A DNA stretch of 48,857 nt, from UHGV virus genome UHGV-0138835; one strand, 5' to 3'. The position numbers were made by a program, and so were the translations under genes. Every line of letters starts with the position of its first letter. Positions within the stretch are counted from its first letter, which is position 1. This stretch comes from a virus. Of this stretch, positions 7,839 through 34,107 are shown piece by piece. A model generated the notes under the pieces. It saw only the letters and a list, made by a program, of their open reading frames with translations. It searched no databases and had not been told where the DNA came from.

Positions 7839-8500
7839 TATCTTTTCCCCGTGTATTCAACGTGTCCGATACATCCATCAATAATAGCTTGCGCCATGTT
7901 GCGATAATCGCACGAAAATTCGTTGTCGCGGTTAAAGTTAATCTCTTTCGCCGCATCTTCACCGATAACCTTAGTAGCTAGTGCGAAAGCTATTTCAGCA
8001 AGCGCCTTTTCTTTCGGATCTACATGCAGCTTGAAAGCGCATGTTGTCCATGATAGCGGCCTCTCTAAGCATAAATCTTCCTTGCTTTCACATATAGCCC
8101 ATTTGTCACCAACATATTTAAATTTAACGACATCTAGAACCGTTCCGCTCGTAAGACCTACACAATCAAGCCACACGCCAACTGGAGGCTTTTCGCCTGC
8201 CAACCATTCCGTTTTTTCTTGTTGCGTTTCGCAATCATGCCGCTCATCTTCGATTAATTCATCAATGATTTCACTTTCTTTATTCATGCCGTCATCATCC
8301 TTATTCGATAAATTAGCGTATTTATCAAATTTCCAGCTTGCAGCCATAACCGAATAAGTGCCGCCAGTGTCAGCGCGAACACCCAATAAATAGTATGATC
8401 CAAAATTATATTCTGTGCGGCATGTTGTTACCTCAAACGATGGGTAACACTCAGGGTTAGTGCGATGGCTAATCACGCCAATTGCTTTAAGTTTATTCAT
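7838..8500 (-). CDS. hypothetical protein (220 aa), integrase-proximal accessory gene
   Basis: Long ORF, translationally coupled to downstream gene (TAATG overlap); no family recognised. Confidence 0.4.
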   Translation of the reverse strand: MNKLKAIGVISHRTNPECYPSFEVTTCRTEYNFGSYYLLGVRADTGGTYSVMAASWKFDKYANLSNKDDDGMNKESEIIDELIEDERHDCETQQEKTEWLAGEKPPVGVWLDCVGLTSGTVLDVVKFKYVGDKWAICESKEDLCLERPLSWTTCAFKLHVDPKEKALAEIAFALATKVIGEDAAKEINFNRDNEFSCDYRNMAQAIIDGCIGHVEYTGKR

Positions 8501-8514
8501 TTGCTTATCCTCGA

Positions 8515-8691
8515 TTACGCCACAGTTACATTGTCAACTTTGATAAAATATTCAGGATGATTTTCTATTTCGTTCTTGAAGTGCGCGTGACACAATCGCC
8601 ACTCCCGCGCCTGGTTGTGAAAATAGTAAACGTATTCGCCATCAATCTTGTATAAAATGCCTGTAGGTTTAGCCATGTAGTAACGAACCAT
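8515..8691 (-). CDS. hypothetical small protein
   Basis: Track ORF 8515-8745 trimmed to the internal ATG that overlaps the NinB stop by one base. Confidence 0.3.
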   Translation of the reverse strand: MVRYYMAKPTGILYKIDGEYVYYFHNQAREWRLCHAHFKNEIENHPEYFIKVDNVTVA

Positions 8692-18914: not shown

Positions 18915-19139
18915 ATGATCGAAGATAAAGAAGTTGACAATGAAATTCCTGACGGCGCTGATGAACTTATTACTTTCGGTGGCGGGCTGTACGAGTTTGA
19001 AACGTCGGCAGGGTGGATCGATAAGTGGCCTTTTCCAACTCGACAGGAATTAAGCGAACGTAAATCATTTGGCGAAGATGCCGAACGGCTGGCTAATAAC
19101 AAATGGCTTGATAAGTTCATTGCGGAGGGTGGCAAATGA
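18915..19139 (+). CDS. hypothetical protein (74 aa)
   Basis: ORF in operon. Confidence 0.35.
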   Translation: MIEDKEVDNEIPDGADELITFGGGLYEFETSAGWIDKWPFPTRQELSERKSFGEDAERLANNKWLDKFIAEGGK

Positions 19140-19249
19140 ATCTTGCAAAAATTGCCGCATTGCTTGCGGCTTTATCTATCGCCGTGCTGTATCTCAGCGT
19201 GTCGCTTTATATCACGGTAGCGATCATTAAACTCATTACTAACATGTGA
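19136..19249 (+). CDS. micro-ORF (37 aa), hydrophobic membrane peptide MNLAKIAALLAALSIAVLYLSVSLYITVAIIKLITNM
   Basis: ATGA overlap with the upstream gene, SD GGAGGGTGG; below ORF-track cutoff. Confidence 0.35.
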   Translation: MNLAKIAALLAALSIAVLYLSVSLYITVAIIKLITNM

Positions 19250-19257
19250 GGCCAATC

Positions 19258-19377
19258 ATGAAAGTCGGTAAGGATATTGTGACTGTCGCGTTTTGCATTA
19301 TTTGCTTCCTGTTTGTGGTTGTTTCTTGTGGCGCATTTGCTGCGTTGGTTAGCTTTATTTTTAGAGGGTTGCCGTGA
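19258..19377 (+). CDS. micro-ORF (39 aa), hydrophobic membrane peptide MKVGKDIVTVAFCIICFLFVVVSCGAFAALVSFIFRGLP
   Basis: ATG 19258; its stop overlaps the start of the next gene (GTGATGA). Confidence 0.35.
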   Translation: MKVGKDIVTVAFCIICFLFVVVSCGAFAALVSFIFRGLP

Positions 19378-30653: not shown

Positions 30654-30681
30654 ATTTCCTAACAATGCGAAATTGTAATTA

Positions 30682-30703
30682 CCCGGCCCAGCGCCGGGTT
30701 TTT
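30682..30703 (+). terminator. rho-independent terminator hairpin just upstream of holin (tR'-like)
   Basis: cccggc-ccagc-gccggg followed by TTTTT; SD GGAGG and holin ATG follow. Confidence 0.5.
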
Positions 30704-30723: not shown

Positions 30724-30924
30724 ATGTTCGACAGAATACGGGAGGCGTGTGCGTATGTGACTGGTGCAGTAACCGCTTTTTTCGGTGCTATAACCATCAA
30801 TGACGTTGCAGTGTTCGTTGGTATCTTATCAACCATTGGCACATTTGCCGTTAATTATTACTTCAAATCACAGGAGAACAAGCGAGCGCAAGAGGAACAC
30901 GACGCGCGAATGGGGAATAAGTAA
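30724..30924 (+). CDS. holin (pinholin-like, two TM domains)
   Basis: 66 aa, two hydrophobic helices, basic C-terminus, directly upstream of a SAR endolysin as in phage 21. Confidence 0.7.
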
Positions 30925-30925
30925 A

Positions 30926-31417
30926 ATGATTAGCCAATCGCTGAAAAACAAGATTGTTGCGGCGGCGGCTGGTGGGGCGATCGCTATTGCGGCGGTGATG
31001 GTAAAAGATCTTGAGGGTGTGGAGTACAAGGCATACAGAGATGTCATCGGTGTTTACACGATATGTTATGGACACGTCGGGAAAGACATCATGCTTGGTA
31101 AGACTTACACGCAATCAGAATGCGATGCTTTGTTAAATAAAGATCTGCACAAGACCGCAAAAGCGATTGACCCATATATCAAAGTCGAAATATCAGATTT
31201 TACCCGCGCAGCACTTTATTCATTCGCCTATAACGTAGGCGCTACCAATTTCAAAACATCAACCTTATTGAAGCTACTCAATGACGGCAAGAAATCAGAG
31301 GCGTGCGCACAGCTTAAACGCTGGGTATACGCTGGCGGTAAGAAGTGGCAAGGCCTGGTAAACCGCCGCGAGGTTGAATATGCCGTTTGCGAATGGGGTG
31401 AAACATGGACAAGGTGA
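30926..31417 (+). CDS. SAR endolysin (GH24 lysozyme with N-terminal signal-arrest-release domain)
   Basis: Close match to recalled phage 21 R21 (GGAIAIA…LEGV.Y…[28 protein letters not shown]……YSF.YNVGA.NF.TSTLL……W.YAGGK.W.GL..RRE.E). Confidence 0.85.
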
Positions 31418-31875
31418 AGACGTTAATCATCGCCGTTGTTGTTTGCATTATTGCCAGCCTTACAGCCGTAACGTGTTATTACCAGGGTGAGGCAGCAAGG
31501 TTACAGGAAGAAGTCACGGTAACGAAAGGCGCACTGAAAACGGCAAGTAACACTATTCAGCAGATGAAGGAGCGAAACGCCGAACTGTCAAAACTTGATA
31601 AGAGGTATCACGATGAGATTAAAGCTATCAGATCTGACATTGCCGATCTGCGCACTGGCATTGATAACGGCACTATCAGGCTGCGCGTCAACGCAATACC
31701 CGTGCGAGTGTCCGACCCCGCCGGAACCGCCAGCGCCATTGATGGAGCCGCCTGTAGACTCACTCCCGACGCTGAATCGGCTTATCTATCCCTCAGAGAA
31801 CAACTAAAAGAGAAAGATGCGAAGATAACCGCGCTTCATGGCTACATCAAAACGCAGTGCTTACGCAAAGAATAA
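31405..31875 (+). CDS. Rz: Rz i-spanin
   Basis: N-terminal TM helix then coiled-coil periplasmic domain; contains embedded +1-frame Rz1. Confidence 0.75.
31613..31807 (+). CDS. Rz1: Rz1 o-spanin (lipoprotein embedded within Rz)
   Basis: Lipobox ITALSGC, proline-rich mature peptide, ATG 31613 with AGAGG SD, fully inside Rz in another frame. Confidence 0.7.
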   Translation: MRLKLSDLTLPICALALITALSGCASTQYPCECPTPPEPPAPLMEPPVDSLPTLNRLIYPSENN

Positions 31876-32202
31876 CAGCGCGTGGACGTGTCGCCGTTTC
31901 CGCCAGCCAGCCATAACCGGGCCAATCCTTCCCGCGAGCGGCGGCGGAAATTCAAAAACACGTAATACCGGATCAACAGTCCCATTAACAGGTCAGGCGC
32001 CACCTGGGTAGAAGAAAGCGCCATTTACTCACCTGCCACGCGTAGGACGAGCGCCCGGATCTGTTTATCAGAGATGTTAAGCAGGTCCAGTTTTATAAAA
32101 TTCTGCAAACGGTACTCACTAAGCGCCGTTTTCAGTGTTTTATGTCATTCCTGCCGCTGTATAAACAGGAAGTAAAAGCAAACCAGACAGGAGATTATTC
32201 TG

Positions 32203-32787
32203 ATGGCTAAGGCTAAAGGCATTAAGTTGCCTCAATTCAAAGTCCCGCTCTTTGAGCATACAACCGTTTTCTTTTGCCCGACCCGCGAGATGTTCTATGA
32301 ATTTTGCGAAAAGGCAGGGATCCCAATCGAACCTGATTTCGAACTGGCAGGGGGATTAACACTTACTTGCACTGGCGAGAAAGGCGGTAACTTCTATGTG
32401 ATCGCAGTATTCGACAATGAGTTAGGAACGCTGGTACATGAAGCGGCGCATACCACATTCCATGTTTTAAGCGATGTAGGCGTCGTTGCAACTACAGATC
32501 CAAGCCATCCGGCAAACGAGACTTATGCTTACATGGTGGGCCGTATCTTTGATGCATTTTTCCCCATCCTGGCAGAATCAAATGAAGCACAGGTTGCAGC
32601 AATGCAGGCCGCTGAAGTCGTAGAGAAGGCATTAGAACAGGCAGAAAAGGCGACTGATGCAGCAGAACAGGCAGTGGAACAGGCAGAGCAGCCGAAAGAA
32701 GAGAAAAAACCAGCTAAGAAAGGCAAACGTAAGCCTAAAGCAAAAGAAGCGCTTGTACCGCGTGTTATGAGCTTTAAACGGGGGTGA
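32203..32787 (+). CDS. HExxH-motif protein with Ala/Glu/Lys-rich C-terminal tail (possible zinc metallopeptidase)
   Basis: LVHEAAHTTFH motif; low-complexity basic C-terminus; between lysis cassette and micro-ORF array. Confidence 0.5.
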   Translation: MAKAKGIKLPQFKVPLFEHTTVFFCPTREMFYEFCEKAGIPIEPDFELAGGLTLTCTGEKGGNFYVIAVFDNELGTLVHEAAHTTFHVLSDVGVVATTDPSHPANETYAYMVGRIFDAFFPILAESNEAQVAAMQAAEVVEKALEQAEKATDAAEQAVEQAEQPKEEKKPAKKGKRKPKAKEALVPRVMSFKRG

Positions 32788-32789
32788 TT

Positions 32790-32858
32790 ATGGTTACTTT
32801 CCTGTTAGGTTTATTTATCGGAATGGCTGCCGCTGTAATATTACTGGTCGGTGAATAA
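32790..32858 (+). CDS. micro-ORF 1 (22 aa) hydrophobic single-helix peptide MVTFLLGLFIGMAAAVILLVGE
   Basis: SD GGGGGTGA 5 nt upstream; read by hand; below ORF-track cutoff. Confidence 0.45.
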   Translation: MVTFLLGLFIGMAAAVILLVGE

Positions 32859-32862
32859 TGTT

Positions 32863-32979
32863 ATGGACGATTATATCATCGCCGGATTAATCGGTATTTC
32901 TGTATTTCTTGTTGGTTCTATCATAGTTGCATTGATAAACGCATATATCAAGCATTGGGTGGGGTTGAAAGATGATTGA
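32863..32979 (+). CDS. micro-ORF 2 (38 aa) MDDYIIAGLIGISVFLVGSIIVALINAYIKHWVGLKDD
   Basis: SD GGTGA 9 nt upstream. Confidence 0.45.
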   Translation: MDDYIIAGLIGISVFLVGSIIVALINAYIKHWVGLKDD

Positions 32980-33046
32980 TCCGCTCATTATCCTTTCTGC
33001 CTGCGTCGCTGTATGGCTGGCGATCATGATATTCATTGAAAGCTGA
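32972..33046 (+). CDS. micro-ORF 3 (24 aa) MIDPLIILSACVAVWLAIMIFIES
   Basis: ATGATTGA overlap with micro-ORF 2; SD GGGTGGGG upstream. Confidence 0.4.
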   Translation: MIDPLIILSACVAVWLAIMIFIES

Positions 33047-33057
33047 AGGTATTCACC

Positions 33058-33132
33058 ATGAATATTTACGATCTAATATGGTGGTCAGTGGTCGCCGTCA
33101 TTATCTATTTCTGGTGGAAGAATGTTGTATAG
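33058..33132 (+). CDS. micro-ORF 4 (24 aa) MNIYDLIWWSVVAVIIYFWWKNVV
   Basis: SD GAAGGT 8 nt upstream. Confidence 0.45.
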   Translation: MNIYDLIWWSVVAVIIYFWWKNVV

Positions 33133-33139
33133 GTGAAGC

Positions 33140-33220
33140 ATGAACGCATACGAAATGCTATTGCTGGTGGCTGTAGTTGTAGTCATTGCTGTTGATTTTT
33201 ATAGAGGGTTTAAAAGATGA
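33140..33220 (+). CDS. micro-ORF 5 (26 aa) MNAYEMLLLVAVVVVIAVDFYRGFKR
   Basis: SD AGGTGA 4 nt upstream. Confidence 0.45.
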   Translation: MNAYEMLLLVAVVVVIAVDFYRGFKR

Positions 33221-33288
33221 GAGAAGCAGACTTCTTTTGCATAATTATAGTGATCGTCATCGTTGCGGTGCTTTTAAGCGTTAACTGA
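33217..33288 (+). CDS. micro-ORF 6 (23 aa) MREADFFCIIIVIVIVAVLLSVN
   Basis: ATGA overlap with micro-ORF 5; SD GAGGG upstream. Confidence 0.4.
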   Translation: MREADFFCIIIVIVIVAVLLSVN

Positions 33289-33305
33289 ATCGCAGGGGGT
33301 TGAAA

Positions 33306-33374
33306 ATGAAATGGCTTGATTTCTTTTTCCTGGTTGTTGCGATTGTTTTTACCATGACCGCGCTGACTCAATAG
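33306..33374 (+). CDS. micro-ORF 7 (22 aa) MKWLDFFFLVVAIVFTMTALTQ
   Basis: SD AGGGGG 7 nt upstream. Confidence 0.45.
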   Translation: MKWLDFFFLVVAIVFTMTALTQ

Positions 33375-33382
33375 GTGAATAT

Positions 33383-33457
33383 ATGGAAACTATCGAAGCC
33401 GTATTATTCGTATGTATCGCGGCGGTTGTTATTGTGGGGTTTATTATCAATGTCTGA
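33383..33457 (+). CDS. micro-ORF 8 (24 aa) METIEAVLFVCIAAVVIVGFIINV
   Basis: SD AGGTGA 5 nt upstream. Confidence 0.45.
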   Translation: METIEAVLFVCIAAVVIVGFIINV

Positions 33458-33518
33458 CGGTGATTTCTTAATCATGGCTATATGCACGTTGTTAGTCGTT
33501 ATCGTTTTCTTCGCATAA
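33450..33518 (+). CDS. micro-ORF 9 (22 aa) MSDGDFLIMAICTLLVVIVFFA
   Basis: ATGTCTGA overlap with micro-ORF 8 (coupled). Confidence 0.35.
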   Translation: MSDGDFLIMAICTLLVVIVFFA

Positions 33519-33527
33519 AGGTAAACA

Positions 33528-33611
33528 ATGAAAGAATTATTCGACTGGTTGGAAGTATTAACATACTGCGCAAGTTTTGTTGCTTGCGTATACATCATCA
33601 ATAAATATTGA
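33528..33611 (+). CDS. micro-ORF 10 (27 aa) MKELFDWLEVLTYCASFVACVYIINKY
   Basis: SD AAGG 7 nt upstream; stop 10 nt before the terminase small subunit start. Confidence 0.45.
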   Translation: MKELFDWLEVLTYCASFVACVYIINKY

Positions 33612-33621
33612 GAGGTGAAAT

Positions 33622-34107
33622 ATGGCCCGCACTAAAAAGGCAAAGGCTGACGATAAAAAGCCAGCAGCCAAAAAGGTGGGCCGTCCGCATGGTTATACCG
33701 AAGAAAAGGCATTAGAAATCTGTGAGCTGGTGGCGGACGGTCAGAGTATTAACAAAATTTCGAAGATGCCTGATATGCCTGCGCGTTCAACAATCCTTAA
33801 ATGGTTCAGAGACGTGCCAGAGTTCTCGGACATGTACATGCGCGCGAAGGAGATCGGTTTTGAGGTATTGGCTGATGAGATTATCGACATAGCCGACGCA
33901 GCGGAGAACACCGATAAAGACCAATGCCGCCGCCATCAACTGATGATTGAAACGCGCAAGTGGTTACTGGCAAAACTGCAACCGCGTAAATATGGTGAGC
34001 GCGTCACGCAGGAGATCGTAGGTAACAGGGAAGAAGCACCCGTCCAGGTTGAAGTAACGAAAGAAGAGATCGCCCGCATCGTCCAGGAAGTAGAAGATGA
34101 GGTGTGA
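33622..34107 (+). CDS. terminase small subunit
   Basis: 161 aa, basic N-terminus with HTH-like segment, immediately upstream of and overlapping the large terminase; SD GAGGTGA. Confidence 0.7.
   Translation: MARTKKAKADDKKPAAKKVGRPHGYTEEKALEICELVADGQSINKISKMPDMPARSTILKWFRDVPEFSDMYMRAKEIGFEVLADEIIDIADAAENTDKDQCRRHQLMIETRKWLLAKLQPRKYGERVTQEIVGNREEAPVQVEVTKEEIARIVQEVEDEV

Follow-up and report, generated by a model that had tools for sequence, protein, structure and literature searches.

Ten predicted membrane micro-genes arrayed directly upstream of terS in the genome of an mEp021-like coliphage

Does the 822-bp interval between the gene for a 194-amino-acid (aa) HExxH protein and the small terminase subunit gene terS in virus genome UHGV-0138835 encode anything, and, if it does, how might its products act? 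The window analyzed here is the whole 48,857-nucleotide (nt) stretch of that genome, and the interval spans positions 32790 to 33611 on the plus strand. An initial annotation, made from the sequence alone, had proposed that this seemingly empty DNA is packed with ten same-strand open reading frames (ORFs), each starting at ATG and encoding a hydrophobic single-helix peptide. We found all ten. Purifying selection, conserved starts and stops, Shine-Dalgarno (SD) sites, and synteny in 60 relatives lead us to conclude that they are very probably genuine, translated micro-genes in one tightly coupled polycistronic block.

Coding evidence for the ten micro-ORFs

The micro-ORFs are 22 to 38 codons long, use all three reading frames in turn, and cover 93% of the interval (Table 1). 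From the first to the tenth, successive spacings are +4, -8, +11, +7, -4 (an ATGA overlap), +17, +8, -8, and +9 nt. Neighbors had been described as overlapping or lying 0 to 12 nt apart; the tight packing and the overlaps were recovered, and the single 17-nt gap is a trivial departure. Micro-ORF 10 ends 10 nt before terS, and the terS SD sequence (GAGGTGA) begins right at its stop codon.

We compared the interval with 2,000 shuffled versions that preserved its dinucleotide composition. Tiling ORFs of at least 20 codons averaged 3.65 per shuffle with a maximum of 7, and ten were reached in none of the 2,000. Hydrophobic ORFs averaged 1.15 in the same shuffles, with a maximum of 4. The shuffled-sequence control suggested by the initial annotation therefore did not reproduce the pattern. 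No hydrophobic ORF is present on the minus strand of the interval, T occupies 53% of the second codon positions of the array ORFs, and 8 of the 20 strongly hydrophobic micro-ORFs detected on both strands of the 48.9-kb window sit in these 822 bp. The SD-like sites noted upstream of the starts match those of the phage's long genes in strength: the mean SD/anti-SD duplex energy is -5.9 kcal/mol at the ten starts, compared to -5.3 kcal/mol at the starts of long ORFs and -2.4 kcal/mol at all ATGs of the window (Mann-Whitney p = 1e-4).

For comparison, the interval from the 194-aa gene to terS was drawn from 7 phage records, 13 Escherichia coli prophages, 47 IMG/VR contigs, and the two most divergent relatives recovered by a search of 5.8 billion proteins. 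This yielded a total of 60 distinct sequences. Searching these relatives at the nucleotide level with the ten ORFs of the window recovered about 409 full-length copies, about 99% of them intact, with five disrupted and one fused. The disrupted copies comprise one start loss (array L053) and one premature stop (L027), both in micro-ORF 4, and an ATG-to-ACG start loss in micro-ORF 9 that is common to three contigs (L015, L054, and L058). A frameshifted, noncoding interval had been named as one possible outcome of such a comparison; the homologues retain intact ORFs instead.

Variation among the copies follows the called reading frames. Across families, polymorphic sites at codon positions 1, 2, and 3 number 166, 107, and 281, respectively (chi-square p = 4e-19). 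The ratio of nonsynonymous to synonymous polymorphism (pN/pS) is 0.24 in the called frame, but reading the same alignments in the two alternative frames gives 0.93 and 1.46. In families with at least three members the called-frame ratio ranges from 0.02 to 0.49, always below 0.5; these values come from pairwise comparisons of related sequences, made with no tree, and their significance is overstated, which counts against our interpretation. The contrast between frames is an internal control taken from the same data.

Table 1. Positions of the ten micro-ORFs and of neighboring genes in the window. Peptide families carry F numbers, and occurrence refers to the relatives described in the text.
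Feature	Position	Strand	Peptide	Length (aa)	Remarks	Occurrence
Class II holin	30724-30924	+			PF16080, E = 7e-15; weaker P21 holin family match; first helix weakly hydrophobic	
Rz gene	31405-31875	+			followed by a 327-bp gap, then the HExxH gene	
HExxH protein, homologue of mEp021 gp49	32203..32787	+		194	stop codon 2 nt before micro-ORF 1	
Micro-ORF 1	32790..32858	+	MVTFLLGLFIGMAAAVILLVGE	22	F09, variable first slot; predicted hydrophobic helix; SD energy -9.9 kcal/mol	intact copies in 22 relatives
Micro-ORF 2	32863..32979	+	MDDYIIAGLIGISVFLVGSIIVALINAYIKHWVGLKDD	38	F06; predicted hydrophobic helix; pN/pS 0.27	two C-terminal alleles, 38 aa and 31 aa, each intact among relatives
Micro-ORF 3	32972..33046	+	MIDPLIILSACVAVWLAIMIFIES	24	F01; 8-nt overlap with micro-ORF 2; pN/pS 0.17	intact in 55/60
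Micro-ORF 4	33058..33132	+	MNIYDLIWWSVVAVIIYFWWKNVV	24	F04; Trp rich; pN/pS 0.24; paralogue of F17 and F00	40 relatives intact, 2 broken copies
Micro-ORF 5	33140..33220	+	MNAYEMLLLVAVVVVIAVDFYRGFKR	26	F00; pN/pS 0.22; basic C-tail, net +3	family found in 56/58 arrays
Micro-ORF 6	33217..33288	+	MREADFFCIIIVIVIVAVLLSVN	23	F03; ATGA overlap with micro-ORF 5; pN/pS 0.41; M[KR]E.DF group	
Micro-ORF 7	33306..33374	+	MKWLDFFFLVVAIVFTMTALTQ	22	F02; pN/pS 0.15; SD energy -10.1 kcal/mol	intact in 54/60
Micro-ORF 8	33383..33457	+	METIEAVLFVCIAAVVIVGFIINV	24	F08; pN/pS 0.44; stop-SD junction TAGGTGA before the start	
Micro-ORF 9	33450..33518	+	MSDGDFLIMAICTLLVVIVFFA	22	F10; 8-nt overlap with micro-ORF 8; pN/pS 0.28	36 relatives intact; start loss in three
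Micro-ORF 10	33528..33611	+	MKELFDWLEVLTYCASFVACVYIINKY	27	F05; putative core member directly 5' of terS; pN/pS 0.02, pS 0.25	
terS, small terminase subunit	33622..34107	+			Sf6 type; Pfam PF20901, E = 1e-37	

Fixed order and variable content of the arrays

Between positions 32000 and 34500 the window is 87 to 92% identical to seven phage records (mEp021, mEp010, mEp013, mEp044, mEp515, mEp554, and MagusPhagus), and the gene order holin, endolysin, Rz, gp49, terS, terL, portal is common to all of them. By these measures the window, which corresponds to IMG/VR contig UViG_3300045988_047979, belongs to the mEp021-like ("mEpimmI") group of temperate coliphages. The authors who described the mEpimmI phages consider them Nus dependent yet non-lambdoid and a new family-level group (PMC11893012), and the label "lambdoid" used earlier does not fit in the sense of those authors. 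Related prophages were detected in 35 of 5,426 complete E. coli genomes.

In all 60 relatives the interval is tiled by same-strand hydrophobic micro-ORFs, from 2 in array L069 to 13 in L038 and mostly 8 to 10; these counts consider ATG starts only, apply a hydropathy threshold, and carry an error of about one. Among the phage isolates, mEp021 carries 5 cassettes and mEp010 carries 10. The length of the interval ranges from 213 to 1154 bp. About 20 peptide families occur in a single colinear order, with whole cassettes either present or absent. The first slot, held by F09 in the window, is elsewhere taken by F13, F14, F15, or F19. The last slot, always directly before terS, is filled in all 60 arrays by MKELFDWLEVLTYCASFVACVYIINKY (F05) or the allelic F12, and the micro-ORF 10 peptide is 100% identical in relatives where the HExxH protein is only 60 to 65% identical. 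From this distribution we infer that most members are individually dispensable accessories and that the terS-proximal peptide is a core gene.

The junctions between cassettes are also conserved. Among 484 array junctions, 96% are overlaps or gaps of at most 20 nt, with a mode of -4 (ATGA). The 7-mer TAGGTGA, which combines a stop codon with an SD sequence, occurs 1.7 times per kb in the arrays, compared to three occurrences in the remaining 48 kb of the window. At window positions 33130 and 33372 it joins the stop codon of one cassette to the SD sequence of the next, and the identical junction precedes differing downstream cassettes in different phages (arrays L001 to L069); it may be a site of cassette gain and loss. 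The arrays appear to have evolved by tandem duplication and divergence, together with gain and loss of whole cassettes at stop-SD-start junctions. In one IMG/VR contig (L023, UViG_3300045988_063525), a 60-aa ORF with two hydrophobic helices has arisen by fusion of the cassettes equivalent to ORFs 2 and 3 of the window, a natural case of micro-genes merging into a two-helix protein.

Hydropathy and tail charges agree with the common plan that had been proposed for the peptides, namely, a polar or acidic N-terminus followed by one hydrophobic helix. An N-terminal tail of about 5 residues, usually acidic, is followed by a hydrophobic run of 13 to 22 residues and a neutral or basic C-terminal tail of 2 to 15 residues. 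The best 19-residue Kyte-Doolittle mean is 2.0 to 3.1 in eight of the ten peptides and 1.51 to 1.57 in the other two, which are encoded by the ORF at 33058 and by the last ORF (33528-33611), whose product is the least hydrophobic of the array. Among 23 family consensus sequences, 19 have a net acidic N-tail and 19 have a C-tail with a net charge of zero or above. The micropeptides are thus predicted to be single-pass membrane peptides, with one hydrophobic segment and little else. Given the acidic N-tails and the neutral or basic C-tails, the positive-inside rule predicts that the N-terminus is out and the C-terminus is cytoplasmic.

Paralogy was scored by comparing pairwise alignments with composition-preserving shuffles. 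One group, with the motif M[KR]E.DF, comprises F03a, F03b, F02, and F18 (z = 5 to 10) and, more weakly, F10 (z of about 3.4 to 4.1); its members in the window are ORFs 33217, 33306, and 33450. Another, with the motif MN.Y[DE][LM], comprises F17, F00, and F04 (z = 4.5 to 9) and is represented in the window by ORFs 33058 and 33140. Further pairs are F09/F15, F05/F12, and the two forms of F08. The earlier suggestion of a diverged paralogous family therefore stands for these subsets. It does not extend to all ten peptides, for which a single family is not demonstrable, z averaging only 1.15 across all 253 pairs.

Searches of the ten peptides against Pfam, PHROGs, NCBIfam, and PADLOC returned nothing above noise. 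A 42-aa GTG-extended version of ORF 2 recovered close relatives only among 5.8 billion proteins, and tblastn with the 47-aa family F11 against 50,697 phage records recovered MagusPhagus only. In a collection of 15 billion proteins, no exact match exists for nine of the ten sequences; the 38-aa peptide is present, and one database source names it "toxin," an unverified automatic name. All matches to the HExxH protein belong to E. coli phages or prophages, at 60% identity or more, and none was found in 100,044 species-representative genomes. Within the databases searched, the array appears to be specific to this E. coli phage group. We also rejected an RNA-based explanation of the array: no Rfam family matched in or around it at E <= 1, folding showed no excess structure (z = +0.47), promoter-like sites numbered 6 versus an expected 8.8 and included no convincing one on the minus strand, and terminator-like sites were not enriched.

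Arrays of this kind are not a general feature 5' of Sf6-type terS genes. In the 2.5 kb upstream of terS, HK620, CBW1004C-Prop1, LKA5, and Cimandef, a small sample of four phages of other groups, carry 0 or 1 hydrophobic micro-ORFs. The paper on the mEpimmI group mentions neither micro-ORFs nor a comparable array (PMC11893012), and the mass spectrometry study of mEp021 virions does not mention the peptides. The literature located contains surveys of small and membrane proteins, none of which describes this or an equivalent array; this is weak evidence, with subscription journals mostly uncovered. These results agree with the impression in the initial annotation that no comparable array at this position is known from lambdoid phages.

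Predicted mode of action and competing explanations

The array appears to belong to the late operon, a placement supported by the lack of promoter and terminator enrichment within it. Peptides of 22 to 27 residues are complete before they leave the ribosome tunnel, and for this reason their insertion into the membrane would be post-translational. According to our model, the peptides would insert into the inner membrane late in infection and would then bind larger membrane proteins by specific helix-helix contact, not by damaging the bilayer. There is a precedent for the first step in the 27-aa E. coli YohP, which inserts post-translationally via the signal recognition particle (PMC7549839).

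We consider the chances about even that the micro-genes encode membrane peptides acting by specific intramembrane binding to membrane-protein targets. The constraint at the amino acid level appears to include polar and aromatic residues inside the helix, and in family F05 a pN/pS of 0.02 coexists with variable synonymous sites (pS 0.25). Moreover, in systems that combine a pinholin with a signal-anchor-release (SAR) endolysin, membrane depolarization triggers lysis, and ten co-expressed depolarizers should therefore be counterselected owing to the risk of premature lysis. The residue-level constraint and this risk together favor specific binding over bilayer damage.

As to the targets, our first guess, a tentative one, is host or rival-phage inner membrane proteins engaged in conflict, such as those involved in injection and exclusion or membrane-anchored defense effectors. 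It is ranked first because variation by cassette and richness in paralogues are typical of conflict loci. We give somewhat less credit to a second guess, the lysis clock that the phage itself runs with its pinholin and SAR endolysin, and other host membrane functions take the remainder. It is conceivable, if rather unlikely, that the array is a cassette-shuffling arsenal in which each helix specifically inhibits a different inner membrane protein of the host or of a rival phage. The candidate targets would then include a DNA-entry channel or a membrane-anchored defense effector, and the array would be the membrane counterpart of an anti-defense island, assembled from proteins of minimal size that current annotation does not see.

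Several observations weigh against specific intramembrane binding and the targets proposed for it. Several of the hydrophobic runs, at only 13 to 17 residues, are short for spanning a bilayer, and the hydropathy of two peptides is borderline. Late lytic expression would be odd for exclusion or anti-defense, and no lysogenic promoter was seen in the scan of the array. No similarity to the holin or SAR domain of this phage backs the lysis-clock option, and the most conserved member adjoins terS and not the lysis genes.

The alternative that survives best, although we regard it as improbable, is that the peptides are bilayer active in the manner of type I toxins or YohP. They would depolarize or perturb the inner membrane directly late in infection and so time pinholin firing and release of the SAR endolysin, the number of cassettes serving as a dosage knob. 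In size and architecture the peptides resemble Ibs, TisB, DinQ, ZorO, and YohP, YohP is reported to depolarize the membrane (bioRxiv 10.1101/2025.05.06.652344), and the array lies downstream of a pinholin/SAR-endolysin cassette. The variation in cassette number from 2 to 13 and the automatic "toxin" label of the 38-aa peptide also speak for this possibility. However, a generic action on the bilayer should tolerate hydrophobic substitutions, which is at odds with the low pN/pS of every family with at least three members. Dosage poorly explains about 20 distinct conserved families, and we found no antisense RNA, Rfam toxin-antitoxin RNA, or occluding mRNA structure.

A second alternative concerns the last ORF alone and is compatible with any reading of ORFs 1 to 9: it may be a regulatory leader peptide that controls TerS synthesis. 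This would explain why it is the sole universal member, always directly before terS, and the position of the terS SD sequence at its stop codon and its low hydrophobicity fit such a role. Nevertheless, it shares the plan of the other cassettes, with a hydrophobic core and a basic C-terminus, and its universality may merely reflect linkage to terS. No arrest-peptide motif was recognized, though no test was aimed at one. On balance we find a leader function quite unlikely.

Two further explanations appear very improbable. In one of them translation alone matters: the ORFs would hold ribosomes on the late mRNA, block Rho-dependent polarity, and feed terS by coupling, and the peptides would be inert. 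Head-to-tail packing with overlaps or short gaps from the HExxH stop codon to the terS start, the enrichment of TAGGTGA, and the freely varying length of the interval would all be expected. This does not account for purifying selection on amino acids in the called frame only, nor for a hydrophobic single-helix plan kept in all of the approximately 20 families; the L069 array has just 2 ORFs, and therefore a long translated spacer is not needed. In the other, the peptides would serve the neighboring HExxH protein as substrates, a role listed as possible in the initial annotation, or as partners. The 2-nt gap, probable translational coupling, and presence of both throughout the phage group are in its favor. 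We found no link between the two: an HNH gene lies between them in mEp013, the peptides offer hardly any sequence outside the membrane for cleavage, and they stay identical or nearly so while the HExxH protein drops to 60% identity.

Finally, chance ORFs of T-rich DNA, or fragments of a decayed gene for a polytopic membrane protein, are effectively refuted by the shuffles, the frame-specific selection, the intact copies with conserved starts, stops, and SD sites, and the lack of a match between any peptide and a protein family, even though the interval is AT rich (38.8% GC versus 46.0% for the window), all three frames are used, and AT-rich intergenic DNA tends toward hydrophobic ORFs (PMC11188072).

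Related systems, genomic neighborhood, and significance

Small membrane proteins have been reviewed as a class (PMC12648545). The array peptides resemble those of bacteria in having one transmembrane helix, a length of 20 to 50 aa, no catalytic domain, and a predicted need for post-translational insertion, and in being missed by annotation. AcrZ, MgrB, and MgtS are bacterial membrane proteins of fewer than 50 aa that modulate larger membrane proteins; genes of this type are chromosomal, solitary, individually regulated stress genes, whereas the array consists of 2 to 13 coupled phage genes. No sequence homology links the array peptides to known small membrane proteins.

In E. coli, the ibs/sib and ldr/rdl type I toxins occur as tandem repeats. 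Type I toxins (Ibs, Ldr, TisB, DinQ, ZorO, and Hok) are, like the array peptides, hydrophobic single-helix peptides, of 18 to 50 aa (PMC2887945, PMC3567139). Each such toxin is transcribed from a promoter of its own, with a structured untranslated leader, and is paired with an antisense RNA; none of these features was found for the array. A type I toxin-antitoxin locus was thus rejected, given the lack of an Rfam RNA, promoter enrichment, or excess mRNA structure and the head-to-tail coupling of the ORFs in an operon.

Holins, and the antiholin domain of S21-type pinholins, are late small phage membrane proteins in which contacts between transmembrane helices decide function. The array peptides likewise appear to be late small phage membrane proteins, and they are encoded 3' of a lysis cassette. 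Unlike holins, they have only 22 to 38 aa, mostly lack a charged C-terminal domain, and show no significant similarity to the phage's holin or to its SAR domain. The idea that they are holins was rejected: none matches a holin family in Pfam or PHROG, and a canonical class II holin is already present (Table 1). Derivation of the peptides from the transmembrane domains of the phage's holin or SAR endolysin was likewise not supported, as no alignment survived multiple testing.

The exclusion proteins T4 Imm, P22 SieA, and HK97 gp15 have about 80 to 160 aa and often two helices, and they are encoded by single genes expressed early or from the prophage. The array shares with superinfection-exclusion proteins a small size, a predicted inner membrane location, an accessory character, and variability among relatives, but its peptides are smaller and multigenic. 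Exclusion by mEpimmI phages has been shown experimentally for an Lpp lipoprotein and not for these peptides (PMC11893012).

The Entero67K set contains tens of thousands of hydrophobic intergenic micro-ORFs under purifying selection in Enterobacteriaceae (PMC11188072). Like the array ORFs, they lack annotation, span 15 to 70 codons, are subject to purifying selection, for the most part encode hydrophobic or transmembrane products, and often run in the same direction as the genes around them. The main text of that study does not mention prophages, tandem arrangement, or terminase, and its two uses of "array" refer to co-directional or hypothetical-gene neighbors, not to runs of micro-ORFs. Unlike the Entero67K ORFs, those described here form runs of up to 13 with cassette-wise variation.

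The Pf3 coat protein, a 44-aa structural protein of a filamentous phage virion, is a model for membrane insertion assisted by YidC and the proton motive force. It resembles the array peptides in that an acidic N-tail, one helix, and a basic C-tail give an N-out/C-in orientation without a signal peptide. It differs in that no homology was found and a structural role is not suggested for the array.

The gene block reads pinholin-like holin, SAR endolysin, Rz, a gap, the HExxH gene, the ten micro-ORFs, terS, and terL. The array had been placed between the lysis cassette and terminase; terS indeed adjoins it, but on the lysis side the 327-bp gap and the HExxH gene intervene. The lysis cassette itself (30724-31875, plus strand) looks like a pinholin/SAR-endolysin system. 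The endolysin probably starts near 30926, not at the ATG at 30800 of the mechanically called ORF, and has a Gly/Ala-rich signal-anchor-release N-terminus. Just 5' of the holin gene, at 30681-30699 (plus strand), lies a strong terminator-like hairpin whose 7-bp stem has six G-C pairs and precedes a T-run. It resembles a terminator of a late operon, which an antiterminator would have to override.

The HExxH protein has no Pfam match. One record in nr names a 60%-identical homologue "PolyVal metallopeptidase," and the AlphaFold2 model has a mean predicted local distance difference test score of 76. In CBW1004C-Prop1 (L071), a "metallopeptidase" gene at 2163-2989 lies directly 5' of the Sf6-type terS with no micro-ORFs between. 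Its product has no detectable similarity to the HExxH protein of the window (E = 0.18), and the common position may be coincidence or reflect very remote homology.

HNH endonuclease genes were seen at three sites in relatives: between the HExxH gene and the array in mEp013 (L007, 2231-2716), between the endolysin gene and Rz in L068 (2752-3273), and between terS and terL in L069 (5250-5753). This suggests that they are mobile homing-type insertions around the packaging genes. In L068, from 8491-8534 onward, the gene for a Mu F-like head protein 3' of the portal gene has a match to an intein-splicing domain (PF14890). Elsewhere, in the early region of the window, two adjacent single-helix ORFs of 37 and 39 aa (19136-19249 and 19258-19377, plus strand) have no Pfam match. 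This stretch is 86 to 90% identical in all seven related phage records, and its mEp021 counterpart lies between a gene annotated as a "putative toxin-antitoxin system subunit" and an anti-RecBCD gene.

Public annotations treat the interval poorly. RefSeq PGAP leaves most of its 780 to 1130 bp blank, with at most one or two genes annotated, the GenBank record of mEp021 leaves it empty, and PHANOTATE-based records call few ORFs, several of them in the wrong frame. In the PHANOTATE/Pharokka records of MagusPhagus (L002), mEp044 (L003), and mEp515 (L006), several "hypothetical proteins" are placed in frames that find no support in the codon-position data; one example is a 40-aa ORF overlapping the last micropeptide, and other calls are N-terminally overextended across a neighboring cassette. 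Ten genes of a prevalent human-gut coliphage group are thus missing or misframed in every public annotation checked, and the array is a concrete case of gene-length cutoffs hiding a whole class of phage genes.

Small phage membrane proteins are already known as a kind, since small single-helix proteins dominate phage membrane proteomes (PMC4641393) and hydrophobic micro-ORFs under selection have been cataloged (PMC11188072). The novelty lies in the organization, with as many as 13 micro-genes following one another in a fixed order while whole cassettes are gained or lost, in a single core member fixed to terS, and in about 20 families unknown to all libraries searched. The array is readily testable: E. 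coli K-12 supports both growth and lysogeny of mEp021, mEp010, and others, the peptides are accessible by synthesis, and the natural isolates with 2 to 13 cassettes are a ready-made deletion series. If the peptides are indeed specific intramembrane binders, these phages would provide about 20 transmembrane ligands that are natural, very short, and tuned by evolution.

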